In this document: positions 1 through 32,460 of the stretch, piece by piece | How positions within the stretch are numbered: position 1 is the stretch's first letter | How the letters are laid out: every line of letters begins with the position of its first letter | Assembly (NCBI RefSeq): GCF_037042905.1 | Contig: NC_087251.1 | Location: forward strand, 39,930,001-39,994,000 | Reading direction: 5' to 3' | From: Lytechinus pictus | Taxonomy: Eukaryota | Length of the DNA stretch: 64,000 nt | The notes under the pieces: generated by a model | The model's database searches: none | Told to the model about the DNA's origin: nothing | Seen by the model: the letters and a program-made list of their open reading frames with translations, nothing else | Translations under genes and position numbers: made by a program

Positions 1-1666
1 ACTCTAAATTACGTTACCCAAACAGGCAAACAGCTCTTAGCGGACCCAACTTGATATGATGTCCTAATTAAGATATTATACAATATTTCTGATTCTATTT
101 ACACAAAGTAGCCACTCGGTTTTTGCAAGCCCTTTTCCAGCGGTTGGATGCATTTTAATTATAATATTAATAATGATTATTCTTTTTAACCTACATGTAT
201 ATAGCGAAACTACCACAGAAGATCTTGGCGGTCTTGTAATGACAGTTTAAAAAACCATAGGCAATAATTTTTTTTTTATAAAGCCTTGGGAGTACCCCCT
301 TAATTGTGCCCCGCGTACATAATATTCTTTCTTTCCGTTCTTTCAGAAGTCGAGCGGATGATCAAAAGAAAAAAAAAATCCAATAATACTTAGTGAAATT
401 ATTATTTATTAATTATTTAATACAAGTGCATTTCTGTTTTCTCCACTTCTGATATATTTTTCCCTTTTCTTTCTGGATGCATTTATATGAACAATTATTC
501 TTTTTTTGTTGTTGTTCATCAAGGAAAACCACTTCAGCTGGTATTGGCCGTCTTCTATATAACTTTTAACTTCTGATCTTTATTGCCTTCTCTTTTCAGG
601 CTTGATACTTTTAAACATGAATATTCATAATGGCTCTTATTTCCCAGGTTAGACAGTTCCGTTGTGAGAGTTTTTTTTCCAGCGACCCTGCTATCATTAC
701 CATTAACAATGTATTTTTTAATGTAAGGTAACCTTTTCAGATTATTATTGACGTTCTTTTCTTTGTCTTACTAGCACTCCCCTAACCATGCTTCCGTGTC
801 CTACTGACACGATATGCTTTGGTTTCTTTCCCTCATTCTTAGAAGCAGGACGGCTGATACAAAAACAAGAGTCCAATATTATGTGCTGATTGAAATTTAT
901 AATTGATTTATTATGTTATCCAAGTATATTTCCGTTTCTTTGTATACGTCTCACTTTTTTTCCAGACTTGTTTTATTTCCTTCGTTACGAAGGGAGTCCA
1001 CTTCAACTGATGTTAGTGGTTTTCGATTAATCCTTCTTACATTAGTGATGACCGTTATTTTTCGTTAGCATTTGTAAGATAACCCTTAATAAAGACCTTT
1101 AATTTTTTTGTCTTCCATCGGCTATGCTAATGTATGTTATTGTTTCTCTTCTTTCACTCTAAGCAGAGTTGCTGAAAAGAATGGAAAAGTATGCTTCAAA
1201 ATTTCCCTTTCAATCATATATTATCAAATAATTGATTTTGGCATGTAATTTTCGTAACTTGGATCTTATGATCTTTATTCTCTTTTCAGGCTTGATACGT
1301 TTTAAACATTAATATTGATGACGACTCTCTTTTTTTACTAAGGATAACCACTTCAGCTATTATTGGCGGTTTTTCTTCTTTCCTACTAATAAAACAAAAC
1401 AAAATATTATATCGTCTTACTCTTAACAGCAATTGTTATTTTGGTTCAGGTTAGTCGGTTCAGCTTTTAATAGTGGATTTCCAACGCCTTTGCTGCCATT
1501 GCTATTAATAGATTAACATAACAATAACTCTTAATTACCTATAGGTAGCCACTTTAACTTTTATTGGTGGAGTTCCAGCGTACCCTGCTATTGAACATGG
1601 TATTTTTTATTCCCTTCTTTCATTCTCAAAACCAGGGTGGCTGATTCATAGACAGAAAATCCCATT
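1..1666. repeat. Tail of a ~10 kb tandem unit (array continues beyond the window start)
   Basis: ACTCTAAATTACGTTACCCAAACAGG at 1 recurs at 10297 and 20299, with a diverged equivalent at 30842. The following sequence is colinear. Confidence 0.95.
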
Positions 1667-2710
1667 TAACAAAATATTTTTTTAGCAAAATATGTAATTA
1701 CAGGGTTAGGATTCTCGTGAGATCTGAAACTGTGGCCCGCGGGACAATTTTGTGCAACCCGCCAAAACTTCGAAGATGATCAAGGTTAGTAGTTTGGTAG
1801 TGCTCTTTTCAAACATATCAAGTCACTTTTGTATTTACTAATGTGAGGGAAAGATTTCTCATCCAAACTTTTCTAAAGACTCGTCTTAAGCTTGTACTTA
1901 GATTTTAATCTGTTTTTGCTGATATACTTCCCATAACCTGTGTTAAGTATTATTTACCTGCATAGTTCTTATTCATCTCCAATCATGCCAATACATCTCG
2001 GAGAACTAGAATTCGTTCCATTCTGAATTTATATAGAAAAATAATTTAGGAGGTAAAATTACATCGGATATTATATATTTGTCTTCATCCAATATAACGA
2101 TTGTCATGATTATGTTCTCTTCTTTAAAAAAAATTATCTTAAATGTCTGTTTTATCACTTTCACATTCCACAGGCGTATGTATGGGGGCAGGGGGGGGGG
2201 GGGCTTGATGCCCCTTAAAAGTTGAACGATTAAGAAAGACAAAGAAAATAAAGGGAGAAAATGAAAGAAAAAGAGAAAATGGTGACATCGATTTATGAAT
2301 ATTATATCTCGATATATATCACAAAATTGTATTTTGATTTTAAAAGTTCAAGATTTTGCTGACTGTCAACTTTTTGGGAATTTTGCTTCGTAGGTAATAC
2401 CCTTTCCCTCCTTTTTTGGTCAACCAAAGGCCAGCTGCTAGTCGACCAGAATCCATATTGATAAATCCGTAATAAGTCGAGTAGTCACAATCAACTAAGT
2501 GTGCAGTTTCCTAATTGTGCCATAAATATTGCATTTAGGTAATTGCACATTTTGTAAATCAACCCAACATTTTCAACTTAACGGCATGTGACCGAATACT
2601 GGCAGAAGCCCCCCCCCCCCGTTGGTTTGTGACGCCTTTTTGTACCGGTATTCATAATGATTTTTGCATTGGTCTTAATGATACTTTTTATTTTCTTTTT
2701 AATTCCACAG

Positions 2711-3327
2711 TTTTCACAGAATTGAAAATCCGGAAGCTATCCTGAACTTTTTTCCCGAAATATGGACAAGGAGATTGAATGAAAAGTATTATGCACGTTT
2801 CCACAATAAAGACTCAATTCCCGTAAAAGTTTGAGTCTTTATTTACTTATAATTGACTTCACTACATCCATCACGCCTCCTCCAATGTTGAATTTGAGAA
2901 ATGAAGCATGGTGACTGCAAGTTAAAAGTGCTGGATAAATGCCTATTACTTTATGGACACGATACTTTCGGAAGAACTCCAGATGCAGAATCAGTCAACA
3001 AATGTCTTCGTGGACTGATCCCTTTATTTTTCGTGTACGAACTAGACACCATTTGAAGGCAGAGATTCGCCGAGACTAATCCGAACCTCACGGGAGGTTT
3101 GTTGATGGGTCTCTGGACGGTTGTTCTGCCCTTGATTTAGCCATTTGAACTTGATAATATTGTGAACATCAGCAGACAGAGACTTATTTGTGGAGCTGGG
3201 GAGAAATATTTAAAACACTGGATCTTAGAGGGAAATTTTGTTAGGAGCTGAAATCATGTTCCTGTAGACATGGATGCATGCCGATATCAGACAGAGAGGA
3301 CAGATGTCAGACTGAACATTTGTATGA
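2711..3327 (+). pseudogene. Exon-like, higher-complexity block without an open frame (equivalents 13021-13635 and 23120-23728)
   Basis: Polypyrimidine tract plus CAG acceptor at 2710 and ATGA|GTGAGT donor at 3327/3328 in all copies. All three + frames contain stops, and I recognise no protein family. Confidence 0.3.
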
Positions 3328-3699
3328 GTGAGTCCATTTTACCCCTAGAACAACACGGCAATATCACTTACTGATCTTAATGAAAGTTTGACATTTATGG
3401 ATATGGGTTACGGTTTAGTTTTAGTGCCAGGATTTGTAGAGTAAGTTAATTAGGCAAAACGATAGGGTTCCCCCATAGGAGCCTGACCGAAGCTTGATCT
3501 TAGCCCATCTTCATAAATGTTATTGTGTCATATCAAGAAGATTGCTGTGTTGTCACCTACGGGTAATCGAATTCATTTAATATTTTTTAATGCATATGTG
3601 CCGAAAGCTTTACAGCTTTTTTTAAAAGAAAAAGGTTGTAAGGCTTTTCCCCCTACAAATATCGTTGAATTGTTAGCGAGGATTCGGCGTAATTCCTTA

Positions 3700-3923
3700 C
3701 AGGGGCGGTGCCGGCAGTGAGGGGGTGGAGACGTTGCCTCTGAATTTTGTTTAAAGTACTTAAAGAAAATTACAAAAGAGGAGAAGAAAACAAAAACGAA
3801 TTAAACAAAATCAAAATATCGTATTTGTTCCTTGAACTCCATTAGAACAATATTACTCAAATGAAAAAAAAAATGACGTCACCTCTCGGTCGTCTTGCCC
3901 CCTATACCCTGGCGCCGCCCCTG
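3700..3923. mobile_element. Old short TIR element (hAT-like ends) within the unit
   Basis: CAGGGGCGGTGCCGG … CCTGGCGCCGCCCCTG terminal inverted repeat. No TSD visible. The left end is deleted in B and the right end in C. Confidence 0.6.
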
Positions 3924-5477
3924 GGTAGAAATACTTTCACATGCCAAGATTATGGTAGGTGAAATTATCGTAGAAAGCATTAACGACATTCGATATTCGG
4001 GCGTTAATCGATTTCGTATACGAAAGGCATTACGTTTGCCCTCGTAGGAACATCCGTAACGAACGTTTAAAAGGTGAGATATATTACATTTATTTTGTAT
4101 GTTTGATTATTTTTTTTATTTTTCGTTTGATTGATTTGGGTTAGCTTGCTGCCCAATTTACTTCATAGAGCAGGAGGAACTAAGTGCTGAGTAAGTACTT
4201 TTGTGTAATATTGATGGCATGCCAATTATACCTTTTTTTTTGAATTTCCATACAATTTCTACTTTACTTATAAGGATAATAGTGTGGTTCAGTACACAGT
4301 CCCATAGCAGATTGAGTTGTAAACCCCATGGAGAATTATTTCCCATGGTAATCCTCAAAAAGTCAAGTGTGAGTGCGAATGGATGGATCATGAATAGGCC
4401 TATCGATATAGAAACTGATAAAGAACCAAAATTCAAAGTAAAAAAAAAAGACCAAGGATTAGAATAGTTTAATATTCCACTTCTTCCTACATGTAGATAT
4501 GCTCAGATTGTTTTTGTACAATTTTCGTAATTCTTTTTGGACAGTTTAGTTCTAACAATTGACAGTCCCATGCACGTAACAGTAATAGATCTAGACATCG
4601 TTACCATTTTGGATATCACGTGTCGTGTTGACAATACTGAATATGGGCTATCAATCCGTTTCATATTTTTGTTATTTTATACGGGAAATTAATACTTTAC
4701 TATACCATGGTTGTTGCTCAAAGGATCGTGGGTTTTGAATGGGAAAGGGCCATTATATGTGCGTATAAGGAACAAATTGTAACAATCGTATAATATATAG
4801 CTTAAACATAGGCCTAACTTTCTTTATTTTATTATATCTAGATGAAACATTAGGAAATAATTAACAACCTAAAATGTTTACCGCATGGAGATGATGATGA
4901 TTATGATTATGATAGCAATAATAACGCCGGTTATTGTTCAATTCAGTTCAATTCAATAATGGCATTTATTGATGATTATGCCAAATTGTACATGAATTAA
5001 GCTGCAGCTGTAGCTTTCTCGTTTATAAAGGTTGTTGACACAATATATAATTTTAAAAATTATATGAAAATTAATGTAAAGTGTAATGAGGAAAGGACAA
5101 TGTTGTTTTATTTTGTAGATCTAGTGCATAATCATCACATTCAGAAATAATTATCAGAATCGAGATTTTGATTAACATGGATTTATTGTGTTTATGTTTC
5201 AGGTATGGAATACCCCAAAAATACTTACCCAGCATTAGCAAGGTGGTATTTGGACAGTACAAAAAATATTCGCGGCTTTCGTCGTCTTGCCAACCTGAGT
5301 GACTTGAAACCTCAGTTATCATGGTTATGTATACCCGGAGAACAATATACTTGTATCACGTCATGATCATAATGATTCTATGAATGTTGTCGAACTGGTT
5401 TGTGGGGCGAATTTTTAATGCCATGGTTTGTAGAAAAAGTCACGCATCTAGGGCCTTAGTATGAGGCCTTGACTAAA

Positions 5478-5665
5478 TGGTGGCGCTTTAGTTGAAATCG
5501 TCTTCTGGCTTTACTTTCGACGAGGAAAAAACATAAACAGTTGACTTTGTTTTTACGTTTTCGTCCGTCCACTCGTTGAGTCTCTCGTACGATCATTCGT
5601 TTCTTGCTTTTAGTCATCATGCTCAATACGTAGCACCGATCGTCTCGTTCGTTTGAATTATCGCG
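5478..5665 (+). promoter_or_regulatory. CpG-rich candidate promoter/first exon of the unit (equivalents ~15481-15676 and ~25912-26119)
   Basis: Locally dense CpGs in an AT-rich background. Preceded by (GA)GGTGGCGCT and ended by ATCGCG|GTAAGT in all three copies. Confidence 0.4.
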
Positions 5666-6541
5666 GTAAGTTTAATTTCACTAACTCTTATTACAATGAC
5701 TTTGTATACATCAATCAATGGTATCAGTCTATATCTTGTAATTCGTTATTAACATTGCTGTTTAAAATTCTCGTAATTTTGATTTGACACTTTAATACAG
5801 ATACACATTTCTTTACATTTAGTAAAGTGGTGGAGACATAGTTTTTCATAATATTACTGTTGATTTTATCATTAAAAGGGCTTTAGACAAATTAGGTACT
5901 CAGAAAGAATAAAATCAACGATCAAAATCAAACTGGCAACGACAACGGTTTAATATTTTCTATACCGATAGATCTAGATAATAAATAGAAATATAAAAAA
6001 AAGATGATTATATCAAGTGACAACAAACCATAAGGTTTGTATATTTGGTGCGGGTTTATGTATAATTAAATGCCAAACAGTCGTCAGAAACAAATTATTT
6101 TCTATTATTACTATTTTCTTGTTTATGTTCCAGGTGTTGGATATGAATAGGGGCCTTCATCTTTACGCGCTTTGGAAGAGAAGCTTCTGCAACCATATCG
6201 ACTAGCAAATACCCTCTTGGAAATCTAACAAGCTCCGCGAGAGTAATTTTCCTGTGGAACAATTATACAGCAGTTTTTTACACCGATATCAAGTAAAGCT
6301 CATACAACCAAAGAGGTTTAATACAGCTGAACAATTTATCGCATCCTTAGAAAGAACCAGATATTTGGTATTCTGGTAGGGTATGGTTGATTGTGGGGTT
6401 GACTATTTTGGTTGATATCTCGCAATGAGTAATGACGATATATACACAACCTGTAAAAAAAATGTAACGAAGTGTGATGATTTTAGTTGTAATGTCAGAT
6501 TGTTTGAGAGCCAGGATATGTATAAGTATTTTATTCCACAG

Positions 6542-9500
6542 GTTTCCTGCCAGCAGCGATTTGTCAAAACTAGTTTAATTTAGTAATCTTCGTCACCCTT
6601 CCATCAGAAAGCATGTATTTTCCTTCCAATTCCCACTAGCATCGTCACCCTGTCATCAGTGAATAACTAGCCGCCTTCCGTCTTCAACTAGCTTTGTCAT
6701 CCTTTCGTCAGAGAGCAACTAGTCTCCTTCCTTCTACTAATAGTTTCGTCACCCTTTCATCAGAAACTAACAATTCTCTTTCACTTTACCACTAGCTTTG
6801 TCAACCTTTTACCAGAGATCAACGAGTCTCATTCCATGTACCACTAGCTTCGTCACCCTTTCATCATAGAGCAACTAGTCTTCTTCCATTTACCAATAGC
6901 TTCTTAATACTTCCATCAAAGAGCAACTAGCTTCCTTCCATCTACCACTGGCTTCTTCACCCTTTCAGGAGAGCCCAATTAGTCTCCTTCTTTCTTCAAC
7001 TAGTTTCGTCACCATTTATAGCAAGTAGTCTCTTTCATCTACCACTAGCATTGTCATCCTTTCACCAGTGAGCAACTATTATCCTTCTGTCTCACACTAG
7101 CTTTGTCATCCATTCATCAGAGAGCAACTAGTCTTCTCCATCTACCACAAGCTCTATCACCCTTTCATCAGAGAGCAACTAGTCTCTTTCCATCTACCAC
7201 TAGTTCCATCACCCTTTCATCAGAAAGCAAATGGTTTCCTTCCGTCTGCAACTAGCTTCGTCACCCTTTAGAGCAAGTAGTCTCTTTCTATCTACCACTA
7301 GCTTCTTCATCCTTTCATCAGAGAGCAACTAGTCTCCTCCATCTACCACAAGCTCTATCACCCTTTCATCAAAGAGCAGCTAGTCTCCTTCCATCTACCA
7401 CTAGTTTCATCACACTTTCATCTGAGAAAATTAGTCTCCCATCTACCACCAGCTTCATCACCCTGTCATCAGAGAGTCTCTTCCATCTACCACTGGCTTC
7501 GTCACTCTTAAATCAGAGAGCAACTAGTCCCCTTCCTTCTTCAACTAGCTTTGTCACCCTTTAAAGCAAGTAGTCTCTTTCTATCTACCACTAGCTTGTC
7601 ACCCTTTCATCAGAGAGCAACTAGTCTTCTTCCATCTACCACTAGCTTCGTCACCCTTAAATCAGAGAGCAACCAGTCTCCTTCCATCTACCACTAGCTT
7701 CGTCACCCTTAAATCAGAGAGCAACTAGTCTTCTTCCATCTACCACTAGCTCTCGTCACCCTTTCATCTGAGAGTAACTAGTCTCTTTCATCTACCACCA
7801 GCTTCCTCACCCTGTCATCAGACAGTCTCTTCCATCTACCACTAGCTTCGTCATCCTTAAATCAGAAAGCAACCAGTCTCCTTCCATCTACCACTAGCTC
7901 TCGTCACCCTTTCATCTGGGAGGAACTAGCAACCATTCTATCTACCACTGGCTTCGTCACCCTTGCACAGAGAGCAACTAATCTCCTACCACAAGCTTTG
8001 TCACCCTTTCATCAGAGCCTCCTTCCATCTACCACTAACTTCGTCACCCTTCCTTGAGAGAACAAATAGTCTCCTTCCATCTACCGCCAGCTCATCTCCC
8101 TCCATCTACCACTAGTTTTGTCACCGTCTAATCAGAGAACATCTAGTCTCCTTCCATCTAACACTAGCTTCGTCACCCTTTTACCAGAGATCAACTAGTC
8201 TTAACTCCATTTACCACTAGTTTTGAAACCCTTTCATCTGGGAACAACTAGTCTCTCATCTACCACCAGCTTCACCACCCTGTCATCAGATAGTCTCTTC
8301 CATCTACCACCTGCTTCGTCACCCTTTCAGTAGAGACCAACTAGTTTCCTTCCTTCTTCAACTAGTTTCGTCACCATTTATAGCAAGTAGTCTTTTTCTA
8401 TCTACCACTAGCTTCTTCATCCTTTCATCAGAGAGCAACTAGTCTCCTCCATCTACCACAAGCTCTATCACCCTTTTATCAGAGAGCAACTAGTCTCTTT
8501 CCATCTACCACTAGTTCCATCACCCTTTCATCAGAAAGCAAATGGTTTCTTCCGTCTGCAACTAGCTTCGTCACCCTTTAGAGCAAGTAGTCTCTTTCTA
8601 TCTACCACTAGCTTCTTCATCCTTTCATCAGAGAGCAACTAGTCTCCTCCATCTACCACAAGCTCTATCACCCTTTCATCAGAGAGCAACTAGTCTCTTT
8701 CCATCTACCACTAGTTCCATCACCCTTTCATCAGAGAGCAAATGGTTTCCTTCCTTCTGCAACTAGCTTCGTCACCCTTTAGAGCAAGTAGTCTCGTACT
8801 ATCTACTACTACCTACGTTACCCTTTCATCAGAGAGCAACTAGTCTCCTTCCATCTACCACTAGCTTCGTCACCTTTTCATCAGAGAGTCTCTTCCATCT
8901 ACCACTAGCTTCGTCACCTTTTTATCAGAGAGCAACTAATCTCCTACCACACGCTTTGTGACCCTTTCATCAGAGCCTCATTCCATCTACCACTAGCTTC
9001 GTCACCCTTCCGTGAGAGAACAAATAGTCTCCTTCCATCTACCGCCAGCTCATCTCCCTCCATCTACCACTAGTTTTGTCACCGTTTAATCAGAGAACAT
9101 TTGTCTCCTCCATCTACCACAAGCTCTATCATCCTTTCATCAGAGAGCAACTAGTCCCCTTCCATCTATCACTAGTTTCATCACCTTTTCATCAGAGAGC
9201 AACTTGTCTCCATCTACCACTAGCTTCGTCACCTTTTCATCTGGGAGAAACTAGCATCCTTCCTTCTTCAACTAGTTTTGTCACCATTTATAGCAAGTAG
9301 TCTCTTTCATCTACCACCAGCTTCTTCACCCTTTCACATTCCATGTGACAACAAATAGTCTCCTTCCATCTTCCGCCAGCTCATCTCCCTCCATCTACCA
9401 ATAGTTTTGTCACCGTTTAATTAGAGAATATCTAGTCTCCTTCCATCTAACACTAGCTTCGTCACCATTTAATCAGAGAGTAACTCGTCTCCTTCCTTCC

Positions 9501-9601
9501 TACAGTTTCCATCCTAGCTTTTACCATGATCCTATTCAACATTTCACCGTTAATAAGTTCTGCTATTTCTATCGACCATTTCACCCTTCGTCTAAATAAA
9601 G
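6542..9601 (+). ncRNA. Putative giant repeat exon of a spliced non-coding transcript (equivalents 16584-19587 and 26995-30137)
   Basis: Acceptor TTTTATTCCACAG| ends at 6541 and donor AAG|GTAAGA follows 9601. Both are retained in B, and in C as TTTTATTCTACAG| and |GTAAGT. No long ORF; no transcript evidence available. Confidence 0.45.
6585..9500. repeat. 52-bp minisatellite array, copy A
   Basis: Consensus CTTCCATCTACCACTAGCTTCGTCACCCTTTCATCAGAGAGCAACTAGTCTC repeated dozens of times with length variants. Confidence 0.97.
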
Positions 9602-12600
9602 GTAAGAAATAATAGATATTTTGAATGTAATTTCACCTCCTTTTCACATTTAATCTAAAGCCATTAAGCTGTTTCCATATCAATTTATTACGCAACTATT
9701 AAAATCAAAGAGTATCCAATAAGTATGACAAAATCAATATTTAAGGTTACAATTAAACTGAGACTCAAAACTTTATGAGAAACTCCAATCATTATCATTG
9801 ATATAATATTATTAACTGTTTCTCCCATGATTTCAAAAAAGCCCGCCGCCCACCCCCCCCCCAATTTTTTTTTACCTTCTGCCAGGCCAAGCTGGAATCA
9901 AAAAGCATAAAATATTATTGATAAAATCTGAAGGAAACAACAGGGTAATGTTTGAAATGTGAATTTTCTCTTTACTTTAATTTCAGCTTAGTTTTAGCGA
10001 TATTTCATTTTTATTCAGGAGATATCTTTTGACAAAGTAATCACTGTTTTGATGGCAACAAGGACCTATAGAGAACACTGTTATTCAGATGTCACGATGA
10101 TTTCAACAGCAGAATCAGTAACTCAGTGGTATGTTTTTTATTTCCTTTTTCGGCTGGATAAGAGTAAAGACAATGCTAATAATAATAATGCTTATTTACT
10201 CAGGTTAGCCGCTTCGCATCAGCGTTTATTGGCAGTGTTTTACGAAAGTAGTACATTTTTTTAGATAGAGAATGTATCATGATACCAATGCTAACAACTC
10301 TAAATTACGTTACCCAAACAGGCAAACAGCTCTTAGCGGACCCAACTTGATATGATGTCCTAATTAAGATATTATACAATATTTCTGATTCTATTTACAC
10401 AAAGTAGCCACTCGGTTTTTGCAAACCCTTTTCCAGCGGTTGGATGCATTTTAATAATAATATTAAAAATGATTATTCTTTTTAACCTACATGTATATAG
10501 TGAAACCACCACAGAAGATCTTGGCGTTCTTGTACTGACACTTAAAAAAACCATAGGCAATATTTTTTTTTATAAAGCCTTGGGAGTACCCCCTTAATTG
10601 TGCCCCGCGTACATAATATCCTTTCTTTTCGTTCTTTCAGAAGTCGAGCGGATGATCAAAATAAAAAAAAATCCAATAATACTTAGCGAAATTATTATTT
10701 ATTAATTATTTAATACAAGTGCATTTCTGTTTTCTCCACTTCTGATATATTTTTCCCTTTTCTTTCTGGATGCATTTATATGAACAATGATTCTTTTTTT
10801 GTTGTTGTTCATCAAGATAAACCACTTCAGCTGGTATTGGCCGTCTTCTATATAACTTTTAACTTCTGATCTTTATTGCCTTCTCTTTTCAGGCTTGATA
10901 CTTTTTAAACATGAATATTCATAATGGCTCTTATTTTCCAGGTTAGACAGTTCCGTTTTGATAGTTTTTTTCCAGCGACCCTGCTATCATTACCATTAAC
11001 AATGTATTTTCTGATGTAAGGTAACCTTTTCAGATTATTATTGACGTTCTTTTCTCTGTCTTACTAGCACCCCTAACCATGCTTCCGTGTCCTACTAACA
11101 CGATATGCTTTGGTCTCTTTCCCTCATTCTTAGAAGCAGGGCGGCTGATACAAAAACAAAAGTCCAATATTATGTGCTGATTGAAATTTATAATTGATTT
11201 ATTATGATATCCAAGTATATTTCCGTTTCTTTGTATACGTCTCACTTTTTTTTCCAGACTTGTTTTTTCCTTCATTACGAAGGGAGTCCACTTCAACTGA
11301 TGTTGGTGGTTTTCTATAAATCCTGCTTACATTAGTAATGACTGTTATTTTTCGTAGGTTAGCCATTTCAGCTTTTATTGGCATTTGTAAGATAACCCTT
11401 AATAAAGACCTTTATTTTCTATGGTGTATAAAATTTATTTTTTTGTCTTCCATCGACTATGCTAATGTATGTTATTGTTTCTCTTCTTTCACTCTAAGCA
11501 GAGTTGCTGAAAAGAATGGAAAAGTATGCTTCAAAGTTTCCCTTTCAATCATATATTATCAAATAATTGATTTTGGCATGTAATTTTCGTAACTTGGATC
11601 TTATGATCTTTATTCTCTTTTCAGGCTTGATACGTTTTAAACATTAATATTGATGACGACTCTCTTTTTTACTGAAGATAACCACTTCAGCTATTATAGG
11701 CAGTTTTCCATCTTTCCTACTAATGAAATCAAATAATTTGCCTTACTTTTAATAATAACTCTTATTTATTTTTCCACGTTTGTCAGTTCAACTTTTAATA
11801 TTGGTTTTCCGGCGCCTTTGCTATCATTGCCATTAACCGATTAACATAACAATAACTCTTAATTACATATAGGTAGCCAACTTTTATTGGTGGAGTTCCA
11901 GCGTACCCTGCTATTGAACATGGTACGATTTATTCAATTCTTTCATTCTCAAAACCAGAGTGGCTGATTCTTAGACAGAAAGTCCCATTTAACAAAATAT
12001 TTTTAGCAAAATATGTGAATACAGGCTGAGGATTCTCGTGAGATCTGAAACTGCGACCCGCGGAACAATTTTGTGCAACCCGCCAAAACTTCGAAGATGA
12101 TCAAGGTTAGTAGTTTGGTAGTGCTCTTTTCAAACATATCAAGTCACTTTTGTATTTAATAATGTGAGGGAAAGATTTCTCATCCAAACTTTTCTAAAGA
12201 CTCGTCTTAAGCTTGTACTTAGATTTTAATCTGTTTTCGCTGATATACTTCCCAGAACCTGTGTTAAGTATCATTTACCTGCATAGTTCTTATTCATCTC
12301 CAATCATGCCAATACATCTCGGAGAACTAGAATTAGTTCCATTCTGAATTTATATAGAAAAATAATTTAGGAGGTAAAATTACATCGGATATTATATATT
12401 TGTCTTCATTCAATATAACGATTTTCATGATTATATTCTGTTTAAATGTTTAAATGTCTGTTTTATCTCTTTCACATTTCACAGGTGTATGTATGGGGGC
12501 GGGGGGGGGGGGGCTTGATGCCCCTCAAAAGTTCAACGATTAAGAAAGACAAGGAAAATAAAGGGAGAAAATGAAAGCAAAAAGGGGAAATGGTGACATC

Positions 12601-21977: not shown

Positions 21978-24900
21978 TGAGTGTTATTATTCTCTTTTCA
22001 GGCTTGATACATTTAAACATTAATGTTGATAACGACTCTCTTTTTACTAAGGATAACCACTTCAGCTTTTATAGGCGGTTTTCCATCTTTCTTACTAATA
22101 AAATGAAATAAGATAATATATTGCCTTTCTCTTAACAGTAATTCTTATTTTTGATCAGGTTAGTCAGTTCAGCTTTTAATAGTGGATTTCCAACGCCTTT
22201 GCTGTCATTGCTATTAATAGATTAACATTACACTAAATTTAATTACCTATATGTACTACTGGTTGAGTTCCAGCGTATACCCTGCTATTAAACATGATAC
22301 GAATTATTCCATTCTTTCATTCTCAAAAGCAGAGTGGCTGATTCAGAGACAGAAAGTCCCATTTAACAAAATATTTTTTAGCAAAATATGTGAATACAGG
22401 CTTAGGATTCTCGTGAGATCTGAAACTGTGGCCCGCGGAACAATTTTGTGCCACCCGCCAAAACTTCGAAGGTGATCAAGGTAAGTAGTTTGGTAGTACT
22501 CTTTTCAAACATATCAGATTACTTTTGTATTTACTAATGTGAGGGAAAGATTTCTTATCCAAACATTTCTCAAGACTCGCCTGAAGCTTGTACTTATATT
22601 TTGATCCGTTCCCAGAACCTGTGTTAAGTAACATTTACTTGCATAGATCTTGTTCATCTCCAATCATACCATTACATCTCAGAGAGCTAGAATTCGTTTC
22701 GTTCTGAATTTATATAGAAAAAAAATGGAAATTAAATTACATCGGATATTATATATTTGTCTCCATCCAATATAACGATTTTCATGATTATGTTCTCTTC
22801 TTTAAAAAAAAATCTTATCTGTATGTTTTATTATTTTCACCTTGCACATGCGTATATAGGGGGCGGAGGGGGGGGGGGGGCTTGATAAGTCGAGTAATCA
22901 ACTAAATCTGCAGTTTCCTAATTGCACCCTAAATACTGCATTTTGCTAATTGCACATTTTGTTAATCAACCCAAAATTTTCAACATTACGGTATGTGCCC
23001 GAATACTGGCTGAAGCCCCCCCCCCCCCCCGTTGGTTTGTGACACCTTTTGGTACCGGTATTCATAATGATTTTGCATTGGTCTTAATGCTATTTTGTAT
23101 TTTCTTTTTAATTTTACAGTTTTCACAGAAATAAAAATCTATTGAAGCTATCTGGGGCCTTTTTTCTCGAAATATAGACATGGAGATTGAATGAAAAGTA
23201 CCATGAACTTTTCCACAATAAAGACTCAATTCCCGGAGAAATTTGTGCCCTAATTAACTTATCATTGCCTTCACTTCATCCACCACGCCTCCTCCGATGT
23301 TGAACTTGAGAAATATAGCCTGGTGACTGCAAGTGCCAAGTTCTGGATAAATGGCTATTACTTTGTGGACAGGATACTTTCAGAAGAACTCAAGACGCAG
23401 GATCAGTCAAAAATTTCTTCTTGGACGGATCCCTATATTTTCCGTGCGCGGACTAGACACTATTTTTAAGGTAGAACTTCGCAGAGACTAATCCGAACCT
23501 CACGGGGGGTTTGTTGATGGGTCTCTGGACGGTTGTTCTCCCCTTGATTTATTAATTTGAACTTGTGAACATCAGCGGACAGAGACTTGTTTGAGGAGCT
23601 GCGGAGAAATATTTAAAACACTGGATCTTAGAGGGAAATTTTGTTTCGAGCTGAAATCATGTTCCTGTGGACATGGATGCATGCCAATATCAGAGAGAGG
23701 ACAGATGTCAGACTGAACATTTGTATGAGTGAGTCATTTTACCCCTAGAACAACACGGCAATATTACTTACTGATCTTAATGAAACTTTGACATTTATGG
23801 ATATGGGTTACGGTTTGGTTTTAGTGCCAGGATTTGTAGAGTAAGTTAATTAGGCAAAATGATAGGGTCCCCATATGAGCCTGACCGAAGCTTGATCTTA
23901 GCCCATCTCCATAAATGTTATTGTGTCATATCAAGAAGATTGCTGTGTTGTCACCTACGGGTAATCGAATTCATTTAATATTTTTTAATGAATATGTGCC
24001 GAAAGCTTTACAACTTTTTTTTAAAGAAAAAGGTTGTAAGGCTTTCCCCCCTACAAATCTCGTTGAATTGTTAGCGAGGATTCGGCGTAATTCCTTACAG
24101 GGGCGGTGCCGGCAGTGAGGGGGTGGAGAAGTTGCCTCTGAATTTTGTTTATAGTACTTAAAGGAAATTACAAAAGAGAAGAAGAAAATAAAAACTAATT
24201 AAACAAAATCGAAATATCGTATTAGTTCCTTGAACTCCATTAGAACACTATTATTAAAATGGAAAAAACTGACGTCACCTCTTGGTCGTCTTGCACTTTC
24301 ACATGCCAAGAATTATGGTAGGTGAAATTATCGTAGAAAGCATTAAAGACATTCGATATTCGGGCGTTAATCGATTTCGAATACGAAAGGCATTACGTTT
24401 GCCCTCGTAGGAACATCCGTTACGAACGTTTAAAAGGTGAGATATATTACATTTATTTTGTATGTTTGATTATTTTTTTAATTTTTCGTTTGATTGATTT
24501 GGGGCAGCTTGCTGCCCAATTTACTTCTTAGTACAGGAGGAACTAAGTGCTGAGTAAGTACTTTAGTGTAATATTGATAGCATGCCAATTATATCCTTTT
24601 CTGAATTTCCATACAATTTCTACTTTACTTAGGATAATAGTGTGGTTCAGTACACAGTCCAATAGCAGATTGAGTTGTAAACCATGGATAATTATTTCCC
24701 ATGGTAATCCTCAATAAGTCAAGTGTGAGTGCGAATGGATGGATCATGAATAGGCCTATCGATATAGAAACTGATAAAGAACCAAAATTAAGGTAAAAAA
24801 AAGACCAAGGATTAGAATACTTTAATATTCCACTTCTTCCTACATGTAGATATGCTCAGATTGTTTTTGTACAATTTCCGTAATTCTTTTTGGACAGTTA

Positions 24901-27069
24901 ATAATTCTAACAATTGCCAGTCCCATGCAATAGCTATAGTAATAGATCTAGACATTGTTACCATTATGGACATCATGTGTCGTGTAGACAAAACTGAATA
25001 TGGGCTATCCATCCGCTTCATATTTTTGTTATTTTGTACAGGAATGTTGTTGCTCAAAGGATCAGTGGATTTGAATTGGAATAGTTCGTTATATGCGCTT
25101 GTAAGGAACAAATTGTAACAATCGTATGAAAACATAGGCCTAACTTTCTTTATGATATTATATCTAGATGAAACATTAGTAAATAATTAACAACCTAAAA
25201 TGTTTACCGCATGGAGATGATGATGATGATTATGATAGCGATAATAGCACCGTTTATTGTTCAATTCAAGAATGGCATTTATCGATGATTATGCAAAATT
25301 GTACATGAATTAAGCTGCAGCTGTAGCTTTCTCGTTTAAAAGGTTGTTGGCACAATATATAAATATCATATTGAATACATTATTAAAGTTATATTAAAAA
25401 CAATGTAAAATGTAATGTGGAAAAGACAATTTTGTTTTATTTTGTAGATCTAGTGCATAATCATCACATTCAGAAATAATTATAAGAATCGAGATTTTGA
25501 TTAACATGGATTTATTGTGTTTATGTTTCAGGTAAGGAATACCCCAAAAAATATCTACCAAGCATTAGCAAGGTGGTATTTGGACGGAAAAAAACAACAT
25601 TCGCGGCTTTCGTCGTCTTGCCAACCTGAGTGTCTTGAAACCTCAGTTATCATGGTCATGTATACCCGGAGAACAATATACTTGTATCACGTCATGATTT
25701 TAATGAATCTATGAATCTTGTCGAGCTGGTTTATGAGGCGAATATTAATGCCATGGTTTGTAGAAAAAGTCACACATCTAAGGCCTTAGTATAGGGTTTC
25801 GACTAAATTTGCTCGGTAAATTTGTAATATTATATCAAGAAGATTGCTGCATTATCGCCCGACAGTTACTTATGCTAAACGCGACTGGGATAGTACGAAT
25901 ATTCCTGAAACGCGTTGAGGTGGCGCTTTAGTTGAAATCGTCTTCTAGTTAAGCCTTTACTTTCGACGAGGAAAAATATAAACCGTTGATTTTGTTTTTA
26001 CGTTTTCGTCAGTCCACTCGTTCATTCGTTGAGTCTCTCGTACGATCATCCGATTCTTGCTTTTTAGTCATCACGCTGTATACCTTTTACCGATCGCCTC
26101 GTTCGTTTGAATTATCGCGGTAAGTTTAATTTCACTAGTACTCTTTTTACAATGTCTTTGTATACATCAATCAATGGTATCAGTCTATATCTTGTAATCC
26201 GTTATTAACATTGCTGTTATTAAATTGTCGTAATTTTGATTTGACACTTTAATACAGATACACATTTCTTTACATTTATTAAATTTTTCCACAACATTAC
26301 CGTTAATTCTATTATTAAAGGGCTTTAGACAAATTAGGTACTTAGAAATAATAAAATCAGTGATCAAAATCAAACTAACAACTACATCGGTTTAATATTT
26401 TTTCTATCGATAGATTTAGAACATAAGTAGAAATATCATAAAAAAGGGATGATTATTATCAAGTGACAACAAACCATAAGGTTTGTATATTTGGTGCGTG
26501 GTTTATGTATTAAATTAAATATTAAATTCCAAACAGTCGTCGGAACCAAAATATTTTCTATTATTATTAATTTCTTGTTTATGTTCCAGGTGTGAAATGG
26601 GCTTACATCTTCACGCACTTTGAAAGAGAAGCTTTTGCAACCATGTCGACTAGGAATACCCTCATGAAAATCTACCAAGCTCTGCGAGAGTCAGTTTATA
26701 TACAGCAATTTTACATCGATTTCCAACGAAGTTCATACCACCAAGAATGATTAATACAACTGAACATTTTATCATATCTTAAAAAAAGGATAAAATCAAA
26801 TGCAATTAACAAATTTTATGGTATTTTGGAAGGGTATGGTTGATTCTGGGGTTAACCTTATTTGGTTGATATCTCATAATGTGTAATGAAGATATATACG
26901 TGACTAAAAAAATGTTACTAAGTGGGTTGATTTCAGTTGTAATGTCAGAATTTCTAAGAGCCAGGATATGTATAATGATTATTTTATTCTACAGGATTCC
27001 TTCCAGAAGGGATTCGTCAAAACTGGTGTAATTTTGTAATATTTTAATCACGAACTTTCGTGAAGCTCA

Positions 27070-30040
27070 GAGAGCTTCGTCACCCTTCCATCGGAAAGCA
27101 ACTCGTCTCATTTCATCTACTACTATCTTCGTCACCCTTTCATAATAAAAAAAAACTAGTCTCCATCTACCAGTAGCTTCATCAATCTTTCATCACAGAG
27201 AAACTAGTTTCCTTCCATCTATCACCAGCTTCGTCACCCTATCATCGGAGAGCAACTCGTCTCATTTCATCTACTACTATCTTCGTTACCCTTTCATCAT
27301 AGAGACACTAGTCTCCTTCCATTTACCACCATCTTCGTCACCCGTTCATCAGAAATCAACTAGTCTCCATTTACCACTAGCTTCGTCACCCTTACATCAG
27401 AAAGTATTAAATCTTGTTCTATTTACCACTAGCTTCGTCGCCCTTTCATCAAAGAGCAACTGGTCTCCTTCCCTCTACAGCTAGCTTCGTCACCCTTCCA
27501 CAGAGAGGAACTCCTCTTATTTCATCTACTACTAGCTTCGTCACCCTTTCATCAGAGAGCAACTAGTCTCCTCCATCTATATCACTAGCTTCGTCACCCT
27601 TCCACAGAGAGGAACTCCTCTTATTTCATCTACTACTAGCTTCGTCACCCTTTCATCAGAGAGCAACTAGTCTCCTCCATCTATATCACTAGCTTCGTCA
27701 CCCTTCCACAGAGAGGAACTCCTCTTATTTCATCTGCTACTAGCTTCGTCACCCTTTCATCAAAAAATATTTAAGATAAATGATATTAATACTTTACAAT
27801 AGCACTGTTTATGTATAGATATAATTACGACATGCTTCCTCCAGTATTCACGGATTTATTTTCATATAATAACAATTTACACTCATATCCAACAAGAACA
27901 TGCAATAATATTCACTTAAACAATCCCAGGACACTATTTGCACAAAAAACACTAAGACATCAGGGACCTGATATTTGGAATGCATTGCCAGATTCACTCA
28001 AGCTGACAAGATCATTTTATTCCTTTAAACGAACTATAAAAGAAATGCAATTAAACCAATACCTAACAAATTAAAAAAAGAAAATCATTACCATTGTTAT
28101 CATTATTTTAATTAGACATTGACTTTTATCTAGAACATGTATAAATTAAAATCAAACAACAAAACGTGTTATTTTCTAAAATTCCATGCTAAGGACCAAG
28201 CATCTCCCTCCCCCCCCCCCCCAGTCCCTCATGCACCTGCACGTTTAATGACAATAGATATTAATTATTTTGGCTATATTTCAGGGTTGTTACGTTTTCA
28301 AGCTTTGCTTTTGTGACGACCCTTGCAACCATCCTATGTATTGTGTAACAGAAAATACCACTTAATGATTTTCATTTATGTAAGATATGTTTGAGGATTT
28401 ATATACAAAACTATTGTTCATTATCTTGATGTCAAGTTTCAGATATGTATTTTCATGTCCAGAATTTTGTTATGAAAAATGTTGCAAAAACCAATAAATG
28501 AAATGAAAAATGAAAAATGAAATCAACTAGTCTCCTCCATCTAAACCACTGGCTTTGCCACCCCTTTGCCACCCTTTCATTATAGAGAAACTAATTTTGT
28601 TCAATTTATCTTAGAGAAACCAGTTTTCTTCCATCTACCACTAGCTTCGTCACACTTTTATCAGAGAGCAACTCGTCTCCTTTCATCTATTACTAGCTTC
28701 GTCACATTTTTATCACAAATCAACTAGTCTCCTCCATCTAAACCACTACCTTCGTCGCCCTTTCATCACAGAGAAGCTATTCTCCTTCCATCTACCACTA
28801 GCTTTATCACCTTTCCACTGAGAGCAACTAGTCTCATTTTACCTATAACTAGCTTCGTCACCCTTTCATCAGAAATCAACTAGCCTCCTCCATCTATATC
28901 ACTAGCTTCGTCACCCTTTCATCATATAGAAACTAGTTTTCTTCCATTTACCACTAGCTTCGTCACCCTTTTCTCAGAGAACAACTCGTCTCATTTCATC
29001 TGCTACTTGCTTCGTTACCCTTTCATCAGAGAGCAACTACTCTCATTTCATCTGCTACTAGCTTCTTCGCCCTTTCATCAGAGAGCAACTAGTCTCCTTC
29101 CATCTGCCAAGACTAGTTTCCTTACATCTACCACTAGCTACGTCACCTTTTCATCGGAGAGCAACTAATCTCCTTCCATCTACTACTAGCTTCGTCACCC
29201 TTTCATCAGAAATCAACTAGTCTCCTCCATCTAAGCCACTAGCGTTGTCACTCTTACATCAGAAAGTAACAAACCTTGTTATATTTACCACTCGCTTCGT
29301 CACCCTTTCATCAGAGAGCAACTCGTTTAATTTCATCTTATACTAGCTTCGTCGCCCTTTCATCAAAGAGCAACTCGTTTCATTTCATCTGCTACTAGCT
29401 TCGTCGCCCTTCCACAGAGAGGAACTCGCCTCATTCCATCTACCACTAGCGTCGTCACCCTTTCATCAGAGAGCAATTATTCTCCTCCATCTAAACCACT
29501 AGCTTCGCCACCCTTTGATCCTAGAAAAACTAGTCTCCTTCCATCTACCACTAGTTTCATCACCCTTCCACGGAGAGAAACGAGTTTTCTTCCATTTACC
29601 ACTAGCTTCGTCACTCTTTTATCAGAGAGCAACTCGTCTCATTTCATCTACCACTAACGTCGTCACCCTTTGATTATAGAGACACTAGTCTCCTTCCTTC
29701 TACAACTAGCTTCGTCACCCTTCCACAGAGAGCAATTAGTCTCATTTCATCTGCTACTAGCTTCGTCACCCTTTCATCATAAATAAACTAGTCTCATTTC
29801 ATCTGCTACTAGCTTCGTCAACCTTTCATCAGAGAGCAACTACTGTCATTTCATCTGCTACTAGCTTCGTCACCCTTTTATCAGAAATCAACCAGTCTCC
29901 TCCATCTAAACTACTAGCTTCGTAACCCTTTCATTATAGAGAAACTTGTTTCCTTCCCTCTACCCCTAGCTTCGTCACCCTTCCACAGAGAGCAACCAAT
30001 CTCCATCTACCACTAGCTTCGTCATCCTTTCATCAGTGAG
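27070..30040. repeat. 52-bp minisatellite array, copy C (LINE-interrupted)
   Basis: Same monomer with its own variants (CTCATTTCATCTGCTACTAGC; CCTTCCACAGAGAGGAACTC), interrupted at 27763-28522. Confidence 0.95.
27763..28522 (+). mobile_element. 5'-truncated LINE 3' end (CR1-group: CR1/L2/Crack type) inserted in the minisatellite
   Basis: ORF 27811-28074 (MYRYNYDMLPPVFTDLF…HSYPTR…GPDIWNALP…SFKRTIK) resembles the post-RT C-terminus of CR1-group ORF2. It is followed by a UTR, AATAAA and a TGAAA(AA) tail, and it splits a 52-mer. Confidence 0.88.
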
Positions 30041-31861
30041 TAACTTTGTGGCTCTTACCATGATCATATACTCAACATCACACCGTCAGTAAAGTCTGCT
30101 GCTTCTTTTGATTATTTCACCCTCCGTCTATATAAATGTAAGTAATCGATAATCCTGAACGATATAACATTTTTTTTCACATTTAATCAAGAGCCATAAG
30201 GCAATTTCCATATTATTTTCATTCATTTTACATTTTATTAGATGAGGTAATTCATTAAACCAAAGAGTATTCATTAGGTATGACGAAGAACAATAATTTT
30301 GCAAGTTACAATTAAACTGGAATGTATGATACTCAAAATTTAAACGGAAAGTCCAATTGATACAATGATTATCTGACTTTATCCCATGATTTTGAAAAAG
30401 AAAACGACAAAATCTTATATCTTGTTCCAGGAAAAATTGGAATCAAAGTCCTAAAAATTAGAGAGGAATTTAGTAGAAAAAACAGGGTTGAAAGTAGTAT
30501 TGAAAATGTTATTTTTCTCTTCGTTGTTTTAATATCAGCTCAGTGATTTTTCTTTCCTATTTAGGGGAGATCATGTGATCAAGCAATTGCTTTTATATGG
30601 CAATGATGGCCGAGAGAGTACACTGGTGTACAGATAAGACTGGCGGGATGATTACAAGGGCCGATTCATTAATTCTGTGTGGTATATCCCCCTTTTTTAG
30701 GCTGGACAAGATTGAAGATAATGTTAATAATGGTCATTCTTATTTACTCCAATTAGCCACTTCGCGTCAGCATTTATTGGCAGTCTTCTACAGAAGTAGT
30801 CCATGTTTGATGCAGAATATATCATAATACCCTTGCTAACGACTCTCCTAGCGGAGCCATCTTGATATGCTTCTGTCGTAATTATGATATTATTATACTA
30901 TTAATGACTCGCATTAACTCAAAATAGTCACTTGGTTTGAACTGACGGTCTTCCAGCGGCTGGATGCATTCTAGTTATATTTCTTTTTATTTTGATTATA
31001 TAATATTAATAATGATTATTTTTTACAGTGAAACTACCTGTGGTGCCGGCGGCGGTGTTCTATTGCCCCTGTTAAAATATGCAATGATATTTTTTAAGCC
31101 TTATGAATTCCCCTTTAGCTGTGTCCAGTGCCCAGCTAACATGATGTGTTTTTATTTCACTCACTCAAAGCGGACCATACAACAACAAAAGTCCAATATG
31201 TACTTATTGAAATTATTATGGATTAATTACACAAGCGTGATGTATGTTTCCCTTATTTTGTCTGAAAGCATTTTGATTATATTATGAACAATAATTGTTT
31301 TTATTTCACCAAGGAAAACCACTTCAGCTGGTACTGGCCGTCTTCTATATAACTTATAACTTCTGATCTTTATTGTCTTCTCTTTTCAGGCTTGATAATT
31401 TTTAAACATGAATATTCACAATGACTCTTATTTTCCAGGTTAGACCGTTCAGTTATAATGGTTTTTTCCAGCGACCCTGCTATAATGACCATTGAAATAT
31501 ATTTTATTACCTATTGTAGCCACTTATTAACATCCTTAAACCATGTCTACGGGCCCTGCTAAAATGATATGTTTTTACTTTTTTCTCTCATTCTCAGAAG
31601 CAAAGCGACTGATACAAAAACAATAGTCCAATACATGTACTTCCTGTTTTCTTTTTGATTAATTATGTCAACTGAGTGTATTTCCAATTTCCTTAACTTT
31701 TCTTTTTTCTTCTTTTCCGACTTTTTTATTATGAAAATCAATCATCTTTTTTTTTATTACCAAGGAAAGCTTCTTCAACTGATGTTTGCGGTCGTCTATT
31801 GATCCTGCTTACATTAGTAATGACTCTTGATATTCCTTAACCCTGCCTCTTGTCTTTCGAA

Positions 31862-31915
31862 CTAATATTATTATTATTATAATTTTTATTATTATTATTA
31901 TTATCATTATTATTT
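31862..31915. repeat. (ATT)n microsatellite
   Basis: Direct reading. Confidence 0.85.
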
Positions 31916-32255
31916 CGAACTAGCCCATTCAGCTCTTATTGGTCGTGTTCCAGCATGCTCAACTATTAAGCACGATATGTTTTTATTTCCCTTCTTTCAT
32001 TCTCAAAAGCAGAGTGGCTGATACAAAGAAATTCCCATTCTTTCACTATCTAGCTAGCAGCCTGGCGGTCACTTGGGCAGCTTGGAACTCAAATAAACTA
32101 CCCTTTTTGAATTCCAGACTAACATTATCCTTTTCCCTTGATTGTTTTCGTTGCTCATGTTATGATGAGCTAAAGTTTTTTTTTATCATTCTGGATATTC
32201 GTTCTGATTTCGGTTTGTTTGTGTTGATTATTATTATAAATCTAATTTAATCTAG

Positions 32256-32460
32256 ATTTTGTTTGTTGCTCTTGTATTTTTTAGCATTTTTTTCCTGTTG
32301 TAATTTGTTACGATTTGGCTTGCTCGTTTTGATCATTATACATTTAACTGGATCTTTATTTTGTTCGTTGCTCTTGTCATTTTGAGCATTTTTTCATGTT
32401 TGTTATTTGTTATGATTTGATTTTCTCGTTTTGATTATCATACATGTTACTGGATCTTCA
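32256..32460. repeat. Two-copy ~102 bp T-rich tandem duplication
   Basis: TTTTGTTYGTTGCTCTTGT…AGCATTTTTT…TTTTGAT…ACTGGATCTT occurs twice in succession. Confidence 0.8.

Follow-up and report, generated by a model that had tools for sequence, protein, structure and literature searches.

A tandem-cassette locus with a terminal HDV-like ribozyme fold in Lytechinus pictus, a candidate long non-coding RNA gene

Organization of the locus

The stretch of Lytechinus pictus DNA analysed here (64,000 nt, hereafter the window) contains the last three of six tandem cassettes of a locus of about 83 kb, the other three lying upstream. The locus extends past the cassettes as far as a ribozyme fold at 32659–32907.

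1..1700, + strand: tail (Y part) of cassette 3 of 6; cassettes 1–3 are upstream of the window
1700..12020, + strand: cassette 4 of 6
12021..22395, + strand: cassette 5 of 6
22396..32039, + strand: cassette 6 of 6, the terminal one, with 67% identity between its Y part and those of the internal cassettes
6588–9499, 16630–19485 and 27073–30044, + strand: 52-nt C/U-rich array, one per cassette
21600..21987, no strand: insertion present, among window copies, in cassette 5 only (12-nt microsatellite plus part of a dispersed repeat)
27763..28520, no strand: AT-rich insertion splitting the cassette 6 array

Repeat periods of 10296, 10002 and about 10543 bp, claimed from the sequence alone, were borne out, with position 1 matching 10297 and 20299. 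The fourth repeat start was located by the match of position 34 to 30845; position 1 corresponds to ~30842 given a short deletion. Cassette boundaries fall at ~1700, ~12020, ~22400 and 32039. Upstream of the array the window copies are 89–95% identical, while downstream of it identity is 95% for internal copies and only 67% for the last. Across subfamilies array units span 26–52 nt and are alike in being poor in G, dense in YCAY and centred on a UUCAUCA core; they fold no better than shuffled sequence. The 52-nt unit was also considered as a mucin exon and rejected, being out of frame.

A multi-copy locus of separate 10-kb genes, as originally proposed, is not supported. Because each locus has one ribozyme (13/13) and, where found, one 5′ module (7 of 11 loci examined), the 10-kb units look like internal cassettes of a single large gene rather than separate genes. 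The 5′ module was not found in the other four loci examined (D, E, F and H), so that a single promoter per locus is a conjecture.

The absence of an intact ORF was upheld: the longest ATG ORF in 1–33000 is 107 aa, against 82–152 aa in 20 shuffles. None of nine family ORFs tested gave a Pfam match. One D cassette contains a 222-aa frame free of stops; it is broken in almost every other copy, has no Atlas or Pfam match and was discarded. ARAGORN found no tRNA-like gene, and Rfam searches of window positions 1–34000 and of seven family loci returned chance-level matches only, with no snoRNA, tRNA or miRNA family in the unit.

Conserved hairpins and predicted exons

Each cassette carries a set of stem-loops within predicted exons:

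3340..3575, + strand: long RNA rod H1 (236 nt), the most conserved part of the cassette; homologous copies at 13648..13883 (cassette 5) and 23740..23973 (cassette 6), both + strand
3058..3131, + strand: hairpin Ha, pre-miRNA sized; copies at 13368–13441 and 23470–23543
3603..3649, + strand: hairpin Hb, stem of ~21 bp; copies at 13911–13957 and 24001–24047
2711..4073, + strand: predicted hairpin exon (acceptor 15/15, donor 4073 15/15, possible alternative donor 3327); copies at 13021–14320 and 23120–24436 in cassettes 5 and 6
5203..5665, + strand: predicted exon with decayed second rod H2; copies at 15102–15676 and 25532–26119
6134..9601, + strand: predicted array exon, alternative acceptor 6541; copies at 16154–19587 and 26590–30137
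9602..10018, + strand: predicted intron kept across the family; terminal copy at 30138–30564
30565..32658, + strand: predicted last exon, bounded by the predicted cleavage site, with no conserved donor beyond 30138

Splice sites proposed by the sequence-only reading were scored by retention of the dinucleotide in distant cassettes, those of loci C, D and E; most were kept. Acceptors 2710 (15/15), 5202 (14/14), 6133 (15/15) and 10018 (15/15) and donors 3327 (15/15), 5665 (14/15) and 9601 (15/15) all persist, and acceptor 6541 is kept in 11 of 15 cassettes, being lost in locus C. Donors 1784 (0/14) and 10128 (2/15) failed. As background, just 22–34% of the remaining GT, AG, AC or CT dinucleotides reach a retention of ≥90%. 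Donor 4073, absent from the earlier list, is kept in 15/15 and reads AG|GTGAG in 9/9 subfamily representatives. Blind scoring of both strands, also suggested at the outset, gave the same direction (7 of 33 candidates kept on + versus 1 of 18 on −), as a weaker result than the dinucleotide test. Splice signals are thus retained above background on one strand (+), as expected of a spliced lncRNA gene. In internal cassettes the Y exon must be closed by a donor that differs between lineages (the 1784 type is kept in 0/14, and there are other candidates), which counts against the model. The predicted last exon is U-rich and carries a 102-nt repeat at 32256–32458.

Ha and Hb flank H1, and all three stem-loops lie within one predicted exon. 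Between lineages H1 is 91–94% identical, compared with 60–78% across most cassette segments. It folds at −80.1 kcal/mol (z −6.0) on the + strand versus −59.1 (z −2.75) on the −, and more stably on + in 55 of 56 copies. Covariation is pronounced, with 94% of cells paired and double changes in 15 of 51 pairs, a level reached by 0 of 500 shuffles. The 3′ arm of Ha, which holds a 16-nt invariant stretch, is better conserved than the 5′ arm, where wobble changes occur. Within the window, copies differ at 2 of 283 hairpin sites versus 177 of 2995 elsewhere. Against constraint, minor pair types in 26 close H1 copies include 17 that preserve and 21 that break pairing, and the excess conservation of hairpins is not significant in 3 of 11 copy pairs.

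The structures of H1, Ha and Hb and of the ribozyme described below are under constraint in the aligned copies, and no reading frame is; this suggests that each cassette copy's hairpins remain under continued selection. Because these structures are constrained while no frame is kept, the suggestion of an amplified decayed gene is disfavoured; the family may have a deeply decayed coding origin. Segment 3327–3700 was rejected as a MITE, since this RNA rod of the + strand occurs in the family alone, and a hammerhead reading of CUGAU...GAAA in rod and array was rejected by eye since core bases are missing.

A ribozyme fold at the 3′ end

32659..32907, + strand: HDV-like ribozyme fold, compared with a published descriptor (PMC4870747 supplement)
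32659: G1; P1 pairs 32659–32664 with 32686–32691
32667–32672 with 32902–32907: P2; P3 lies around L3 at 32676–32682
32698–32712 with 32881–32895: base of P4; the J4/2 C is 32898
32650..32656, + strand: UACUAAC, its last A three bases before the predicted cut, in 24/26 copies

The sequence is predicted to form a nested double pseudoknot of P1, P2, P3 and P4 with a G1 wobble, and it shares its strand with the hairpins and conserved splice signals. The descriptor specifies TYYHCGY in L3, RN after P1 and CNRA with the catalytic C in J4/2 (PMC4870747 supplement), and it is satisfied, P4 length excepted, in 25 of 26 copies. All 26 have P2 fully paired (6/6) and the J4/2 C; both P2 and P4 show compensatory changes, and P4 spacing ranges from 189 to 3123 nt. 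The ribozyme pattern gave 24 genome matches versus none for a reversed control, and the 3′ half was found ≤4 kb away in 26 of 28 copies. The ribozyme occurs on the + strand of each locus, and no further match was present in 864 kb searched on both strands. Two metagenome scans gave no matches, a result with no bearing on other animals.

Genome matches to a rod arm lie upstream of a same-strand ribozyme in 76 of 78 cases (lists compared by eye). In three loci H1 is present with no ribozyme in 26–30 kb of downstream DNA, and for two ribozyme copies the upstream DNA examined, 14 and 35 kb, is free of hairpins.

We take UACUAAC at 32650–32656 to be a branch-point or STAR-protein motif. The spacing between ACUAAC and G1 is constant in 24 of 26 copies, and the background density of the motif is 0.23 per kb. 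A second ACUAAC lies at 32577–32582 and, across the family, 54–85 nt upstream in 10 of 13 loci. No YAG precedes the predicted cut site. The predicted 3′ end differs from the MALAT1/NEAT1 type, having no tRNA-like element for RNase P to cut and reading UACUAACCC rather than an A-rich triplex tract. Sequence common to loci A and B, which may be two haplotypes, stops ~240 nt past the ribozyme, and that common to subfamilies stops within a few hundred bases past P2.

Family and origin of the amplification

The locus belongs to a dispersed family of about 25 members, which differ in age and occupy at least nine contigs. Four paralogues have 5, 4, 8 and 3 cassettes with the same cassette junction as here. 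About 20 further relatives lie on other chromosomes, with a single array in each of eight examined in full; in single-array relatives the exon homologous to the H2 exon holds an intact rod, often repeated. There are 4–5 rods per gene in loci F–K and 3–8 in loci A–E. The cassette junction is identical in lineages AB, C and DE, so that we reject independent amplification in each lineage in favour of a single origin. Cassettes cluster by lineage with 100/100 support. Comparison of junctions and cassettes shows one ancestral tandem duplication followed by homogenisation within lineages, with copy numbers of 3–8. Most of the cassette diverges as unconstrained DNA would, and partial family copies exist.

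A model for the locus and its alternatives

We consider the locus to be protein-less, made of six internal cassettes and closed by an HDV-like ribozyme fold, with a likely spliced, non-polyadenylated lncRNA as its product and a multivalent nuclear scaffold as its likely role; we hold this reading at about even confidence. It retains much of the lncRNA proposed from the sequence alone, since hairpins, ribozyme and conserved donors and acceptors support a non-coding, spliced-type, repeat-rich gene on the + strand, but not its multi-copy locus.

Pol II would begin transcription ~50 kb upstream of the window, at the conserved 5′ module, and splicing would leave ~7 kb per cassette, an RNA of ~40 kb in total. 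The ribozyme would then cut between 32658 and 32659, giving a cyclic-phosphate end with no poly(A), which might be guarded or retained by U2 or a STAR/SF1-type protein seated on the ACUAAC, a motif that is usually doubled. Rods may bind dsRNA-binding proteins, and arrays KH/RRM proteins. Unequal crossing-over probably multiplied rod and array together, in a lineage with a decayed second rod, and scaffold valency may have grown through this cassette amplification. The protein partners and the scaffold role of the predicted RNA are proposed by analogy.

The main rival to the scaffold reading is a polycistronic small-RNA precursor of pri-miRNA or hairpin-RNA type, in which the spliced RNA carries Ha, H1 and Hb and amplification raises the dose of small RNA. 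We regard it as rather unlikely, although the shared exon of the three stem-loops, the pre-miRNA size and arm asymmetry of Ha and the repetition of rods within genes fit it. A long fold-back does lie in a predicted spliced exon, as in hairpin-RNA loci, and those described in flies in PMC10317233 are likewise spliced, tandem and variable in copy number. However, both arms of H1 vary and compensatory pairs are many, a pattern closer to that of a structural element than of a guide. Outside the family, no near-perfect match was confirmed for the two arms searched at one mismatch, the four outside matches checked showing no family hairpin and no evident target. Rfam gave no match, and a precursor role leaves arrays and ribozyme unexplained.

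Improbable in our view is ribozyme-gated branching, whereby U2 uses UACUAAC while the ribozyme removes the 3′ splice site, yielding a nearly tailless lariat (a circle) and a donor-ended 5′ RNA, as for telomerase RNA in fission yeast. The fixed spacing of ACUAAC to G1 and the lack of a YAG ahead of the cut favour it, and spliceosomal cleavage is documented for fungal telomerase RNA in PMC4299874. Yet the last conserved donor, 30138, is already paired with the conserved acceptor 30564, no later donor is common to loci, and the second ACUAAC fits a bipartite protein site equally.

It is more doubtful still that the family is dead or selfish DNA, whether a decayed gene or a large mobile element that is non-autonomous, dispersed through DNA duplication and with hairpins as fossils or DNA-level signals. 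Dispersal over loci of mixed ages, partial copies and the unconstrained divergence of most of the cassette agree with such an origin. The family loci, on the other hand, reveal no shared ends, terminal repeats, target duplications, autonomous ORF or protein-family match, and the strand asymmetry based on G-U pairs points to RNA. Family copies also keep the ribozyme and downstream flank and were therefore not made from cut RNA. HDV-like ribozymes do occur at the 5′ ends of non-LTR retrotransposons (PMC8256844), but that this one begins a downstream retroelement inserted site-specifically behind UACUAAC, unrelated to the upstream locus, is very improbable, given that similarity between subfamilies ends so soon past P2, that no element ORF follows among the ORFs listed and that the ribozyme tracks the upstream subfamilies.

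Relation to known systems and significance

Repeated exon-hairpin units are found in C19MC and the miR-430/427 arrays, and repeat-rich untranslated egg RNAs include Xlsirts and the sea-urchin maternal interspersed-repeat RNAs; none of these is known to end in a ribozyme. The HDV-like ribozymes known from animals mostly sit at the 5′ ends of retrotransposons or within an intron. We did not find this family described in the literature searched, family motifs included; known sea-urchin ribozymes and miRNAs may overlap with it, as supplements and miRNA tables were mostly outside that search.

The closest known system is a small HDV-like family of S. purpuratus (PMC4870747 supplement, Figs S15–S17), which has the same fold and a near-identical core: a GGGGU start, ACC-UUCACGY-GGU, UGUUA after P1 and AACUAA in J4/2. 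The L. pictus ribozyme differs in P2 sequence and in P4 spacing (189–3123 nt versus a limit of ~54 nt). It is a single copy at the 3′ end of a large locus predicted to be spliced.

The predicted RNA resembles MALAT1 and NEAT1_2, described in PMC13403906 as long nuclear RNAs that owe their 3′ end to cutting by a structured element instead of polyadenylation. An engineered HDV ribozyme has served there as a stand-in for mascRNA (PMC13403906); here the cutter is a natural predicted ribozyme, and the gene is multi-copy and predicted to be spliced. Xist and Rsx are likewise spliced and ORF-less, with tandem-repeat domains alike by k-mer content rather than linear sequence (PMC6633197), but each is one X-linked gene; the present family is dispersed rather than confined to a single sex-chromosome locus, and is set apart by its conserved rods and by the ribozyme fold at its end. 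Hairpin RNAs of Drosophila, hp-CG4068 among them, share splicing, repeated long hairpins and fast copy-number change; as presented in PMC10317233 they are capped, polyadenylated and target-derived, in contrast to the old, covarying rods here, for which no target-like match was confirmed.

We propose, tentatively, a natural class of animal genes in which the RNA is completed at a branch-point motif by the ribozyme it contains, and in which the number of modules determines strength. In one such lineage the rod exon is repeated 4–5 times; in the present one the 10-kb cassette is repeated 3–8 times, with non-polyadenylated RNAs of ~40 kb. If this is true, such RNAs would escape poly(A) sequencing; the model predicts a cyclic-phosphate end at 32658. 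A long spliced RNA ended by a ribozyme would be a further way of forming 3′ ends and would provide orphan sea-urchin ribozymes with a role. With 3–8 copies, the five members that have amplified cassettes would form a natural dose series for repeat and hairpin valency in lncRNA function.

Cassettes and the family of loci

The ~10-kb unit had been read as a gene in its own right; comparison of five loci indicates that it is instead a cassette within a larger locus. Self-comparison of the window confirmed the tandem periods proposed from the sequence alone (10296, 10002 and 10543) and the identities between copies, and the proposed lack of an intact ORF held: no ORF exceeds chance length, and nine family ORFs gave no match in Pfam. 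A genome search placed the unit in five clusters.

Cassette-amplified loci
Locus A, the window locus (window at C7:39930001-39994000), 6 cassettes
Locus B, C7:34.75-34.80 Mb, 5 cassettes
Locus C, C7:30.05-30.10 Mb, 4 cassettes
Locus D, C1:34.17-34.25 Mb, 8 cassettes
Locus E, C15:15.59-15.62 Mb, 3 cassettes

Among the matches listed, unique upstream sequence and a terminal part (window 31.8-33.1 kb) are common to all five. In each lineage (AB, C and DE) the internal spacer changes at one point from sequence resembling the terminal part to sequence resembling the upstream part, ~1455-1466 nt before the RNA rod H1 in locus C coordinates; because this point is identical in every lineage, the tandem arose once. 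Cassettes clustered by lineage with full support in a tree using all 26 rows, a sign that the copies were later homogenised and changed in number.

Queries built from the terminal part and from the predicted exon that carries H1 (the hairpin exon) recovered ~20 further loci. Eight of these loci (within F-P), taken in full, have their parts in the same order and a single array apiece, in units of 26, 36, 42 or 50 nt. The ends examined differ between loci and showed neither terminal repeats nor target duplications; dispersal of the family therefore looks like segmental duplication. The 5' part of member G (C15:14.98-14.99 Mb) holds an ~8.8-kb insertion with an LTR-retrotransposon-type ORF of 1704 aa.

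The cassette tail, or Y part (window 1-1700, 10130-12020 and 30680-32039), is composed of ancient, divergent repeats, each a few hundred bases long, and ~480-nt tandem repeats occupy its position in F-I. An insertion in cassette 5 includes a 12-nt unit repeated seven times (21704-21787), and 21799-21978 matches 54248-54426 inverted at 91% identity. Nearby, a two-pore potassium channel gene (PF07885) contributes an exon at 44632-45195 (-), whose best-identity matches are hemichordate and echinoderm proteins; with the likeness of the predicted ribozyme to one from a sea urchin, this makes an echinoid the likely source. LINE-like decayed coding remnants, identified by eye, lie at 52033-52575 (-), which had no Pfam match, and 53059-53502.

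Arrays and constrained hairpins

Predicted RNA features in the window
2711..4073 (+), hairpin exon
3058-3131 (+), flanking hairpin Ha
3340-3575 (+), rod H1
3603-3649 (+), flanking hairpin Hb
5203..5665, exon with the decayed second rod, H2
32659-32907 (+), HDV-like ribozyme

Between lineages, H1 is 91-94% identical, its neighbours 83-86% and most segments 60-78%. The rod's fold on + reaches -80.1 kcal/mol (z -6.0), compared with -59.1 (z -2.75) for the - strand. Of 56 strong copies, 55 are more stable on +; the strand difference averages 19.9 kcal/mol, and 26 control windows give 1.9 +/- 7.9. In an alignment of 17 selected representatives, 94.2% of cells are paired and double changes occur at 15 of 51 pairs, which none of 500 shuffles matched; slid controls give 35-45%. 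The alignment itself supplied the structure, and relatedness inflates counts of this kind. Minor pair types among 26 close copies comprised 17 that keep the pairing and 21 that disrupt it.

The hairpin exon also contains Ha and Hb. Ha favours + in all ten representatives (alignment energies -27.3 and -4.1), with similar z on both strands in a single window copy. For Hb, z is -5.1 on the + strand and -1.5 on the - strand, and 188 of 190 aligned cells pair with zero double changes. Selection on the hairpins still continues among the copies within the window, where hairpin sites changed at 2/283 against 177/2995 and at 10/281 against 312/3290; eight of 11 copy pairs tested were significant and three were not. 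In A-E and F-I, 5-12 kb ahead of the first H1, there is also an older hairpin exon that has decayed (~C7:39884600 at locus A).

Loci F-K carry the rod 4-5 times at a spacing of 1-1.5 kb, flanked, in the units aligned, by equivalents of acceptor 5202 and donor 5665. The second rod has decayed in A-E (69% identity, weak folding), where the whole cassette is multiplied.

The 52-nt array of every unit has a strong C-over-G skew. Across nine loci, arrays are 11-12% G, with 54-69 YCAY per kb (background 17) and 7-25 UUCAUCA per kb (background 0.2); four pieces tested folded no better than shuffles.

Splice signals

Of ten + strand splice sites that the sequence-only reading had named as kept in every copy, seven retain the dinucleotide in at least 90% of distant cassettes (background 22-34%), a comparison that favours them, as they were picked for being kept within the window; 1784 and 10128 failed, and 6541 is lost in lineage C. 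A blind scored check of both strands kept 7 of 33 candidates on + and 1 of 18 on -. More distant relatives give stronger support: donor 4073 occurs as AG|GTGAG in 9/9, donor 5665 as GTAAG in 8/8, acceptor 5202 in 7/8 and acceptor 10018 as YAG in 7/8, while a strong donor follows the array within ~105 nt at 12 of 13 loci. The donor needed to close the Y exon of internal cassettes varies between lineages; each lineage may have recruited its own, or Y may be fused to the hairpin exon.

Locus ends

A ~70-nt block (32641-32713) keeps ~90% identity even in the farthest loci. Scanning with our own descriptor rather than the published one, we found exactly one HDV-like 5' half per locus, on +, at 13 of 13 loci, and no others on either strand of 864 kb. 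Across an insertion-tolerant P4, the 3' half follows at a distance of 189-3123 nt, and within 4 kb in 26 of 28 copies; all 26 have full P2 pairing and the J4/2 C, and 25 agree with the published descriptor, P4 length aside. The core matches a small HDV-like ribozyme family of S. purpuratus, as given in the PMC4870747 supplement. By every feature testable here, the predicted ribozyme belongs to the HDV-like family. Palindromic-looking insertions of ~0.8-1.1 kb sit within P4 of loci K and M, leaving the core undisturbed.

In 24 of 26 copies, two bases separate the end of an ACUAAC from G1, and a second ACUAAC lies 54-85 nt upstream at 10 of 13 loci. Compared by eye, 76 of 78 genome matches to the rod arm lie upstream of a same-strand ribozyme. 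Exceptions were three H1 loci with no array or ribozyme in the 26-30 kb examined downstream, and two extra ribozyme ends with no hairpin in the upstream DNA examined.

Exceptions to the pairing of hairpin exon and ribozyme
C3:21.51 Mb (-), hairpin exon, Ha arm three times in tandem
C12:23.19 Mb (-), hairpin exon
C5:12.22 Mb (+), hairpin exon
C7:34710639 (-), ribozyme end 35 kb downstream of locus B, P1 pair broken
C7:30150196 (+), ribozyme end 46 kb downstream of locus C

A further exception, at C1:22.05 Mb, is a decayed locus whose 52-nt array stands close to a rod and a ribozyme 5' half, both decayed. In 7 of the 11 loci examined there is a single copy of a conserved module bearing a donor-like site, a putative first exon; in locus A it lies ~50 kb upstream of the window.

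A putative scaffold RNA

We propose one ~83-kb precursor in which splicing would leave about 7 kb of each cassette and which the ribozyme would cut at 32658/32659, the ACUAAC pair then holding or protecting the cut RNA. This RNA would serve as a scaffold, its rods and C/U-rich arrays offering binding sites for many proteins. Taken whole, the proposal of a spliced, ribozyme-cut, ACUAAC-held, multivalent scaffold has about an even chance of being right. The locus resembles MALAT1/NEAT1_2 in its predicted 3' end and Xist/Rsx in its repeat build, but does not fit the defining features of either group. No description of the family was found in the mostly openly accessible literature searched.

A small-RNA precursor is a possible but clearly less probable reading; the locus is similar to fly hairpin-RNA loci, but without a confirmed target. 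Ribozyme-gated lariat formation seems unlikely, and selfish or dead DNA somewhat more so. A downstream retroelement is very improbable.

Under the scaffold proposal, amplification of the cassette would raise the valency of the RNA, and may substitute for the decayed second rod.
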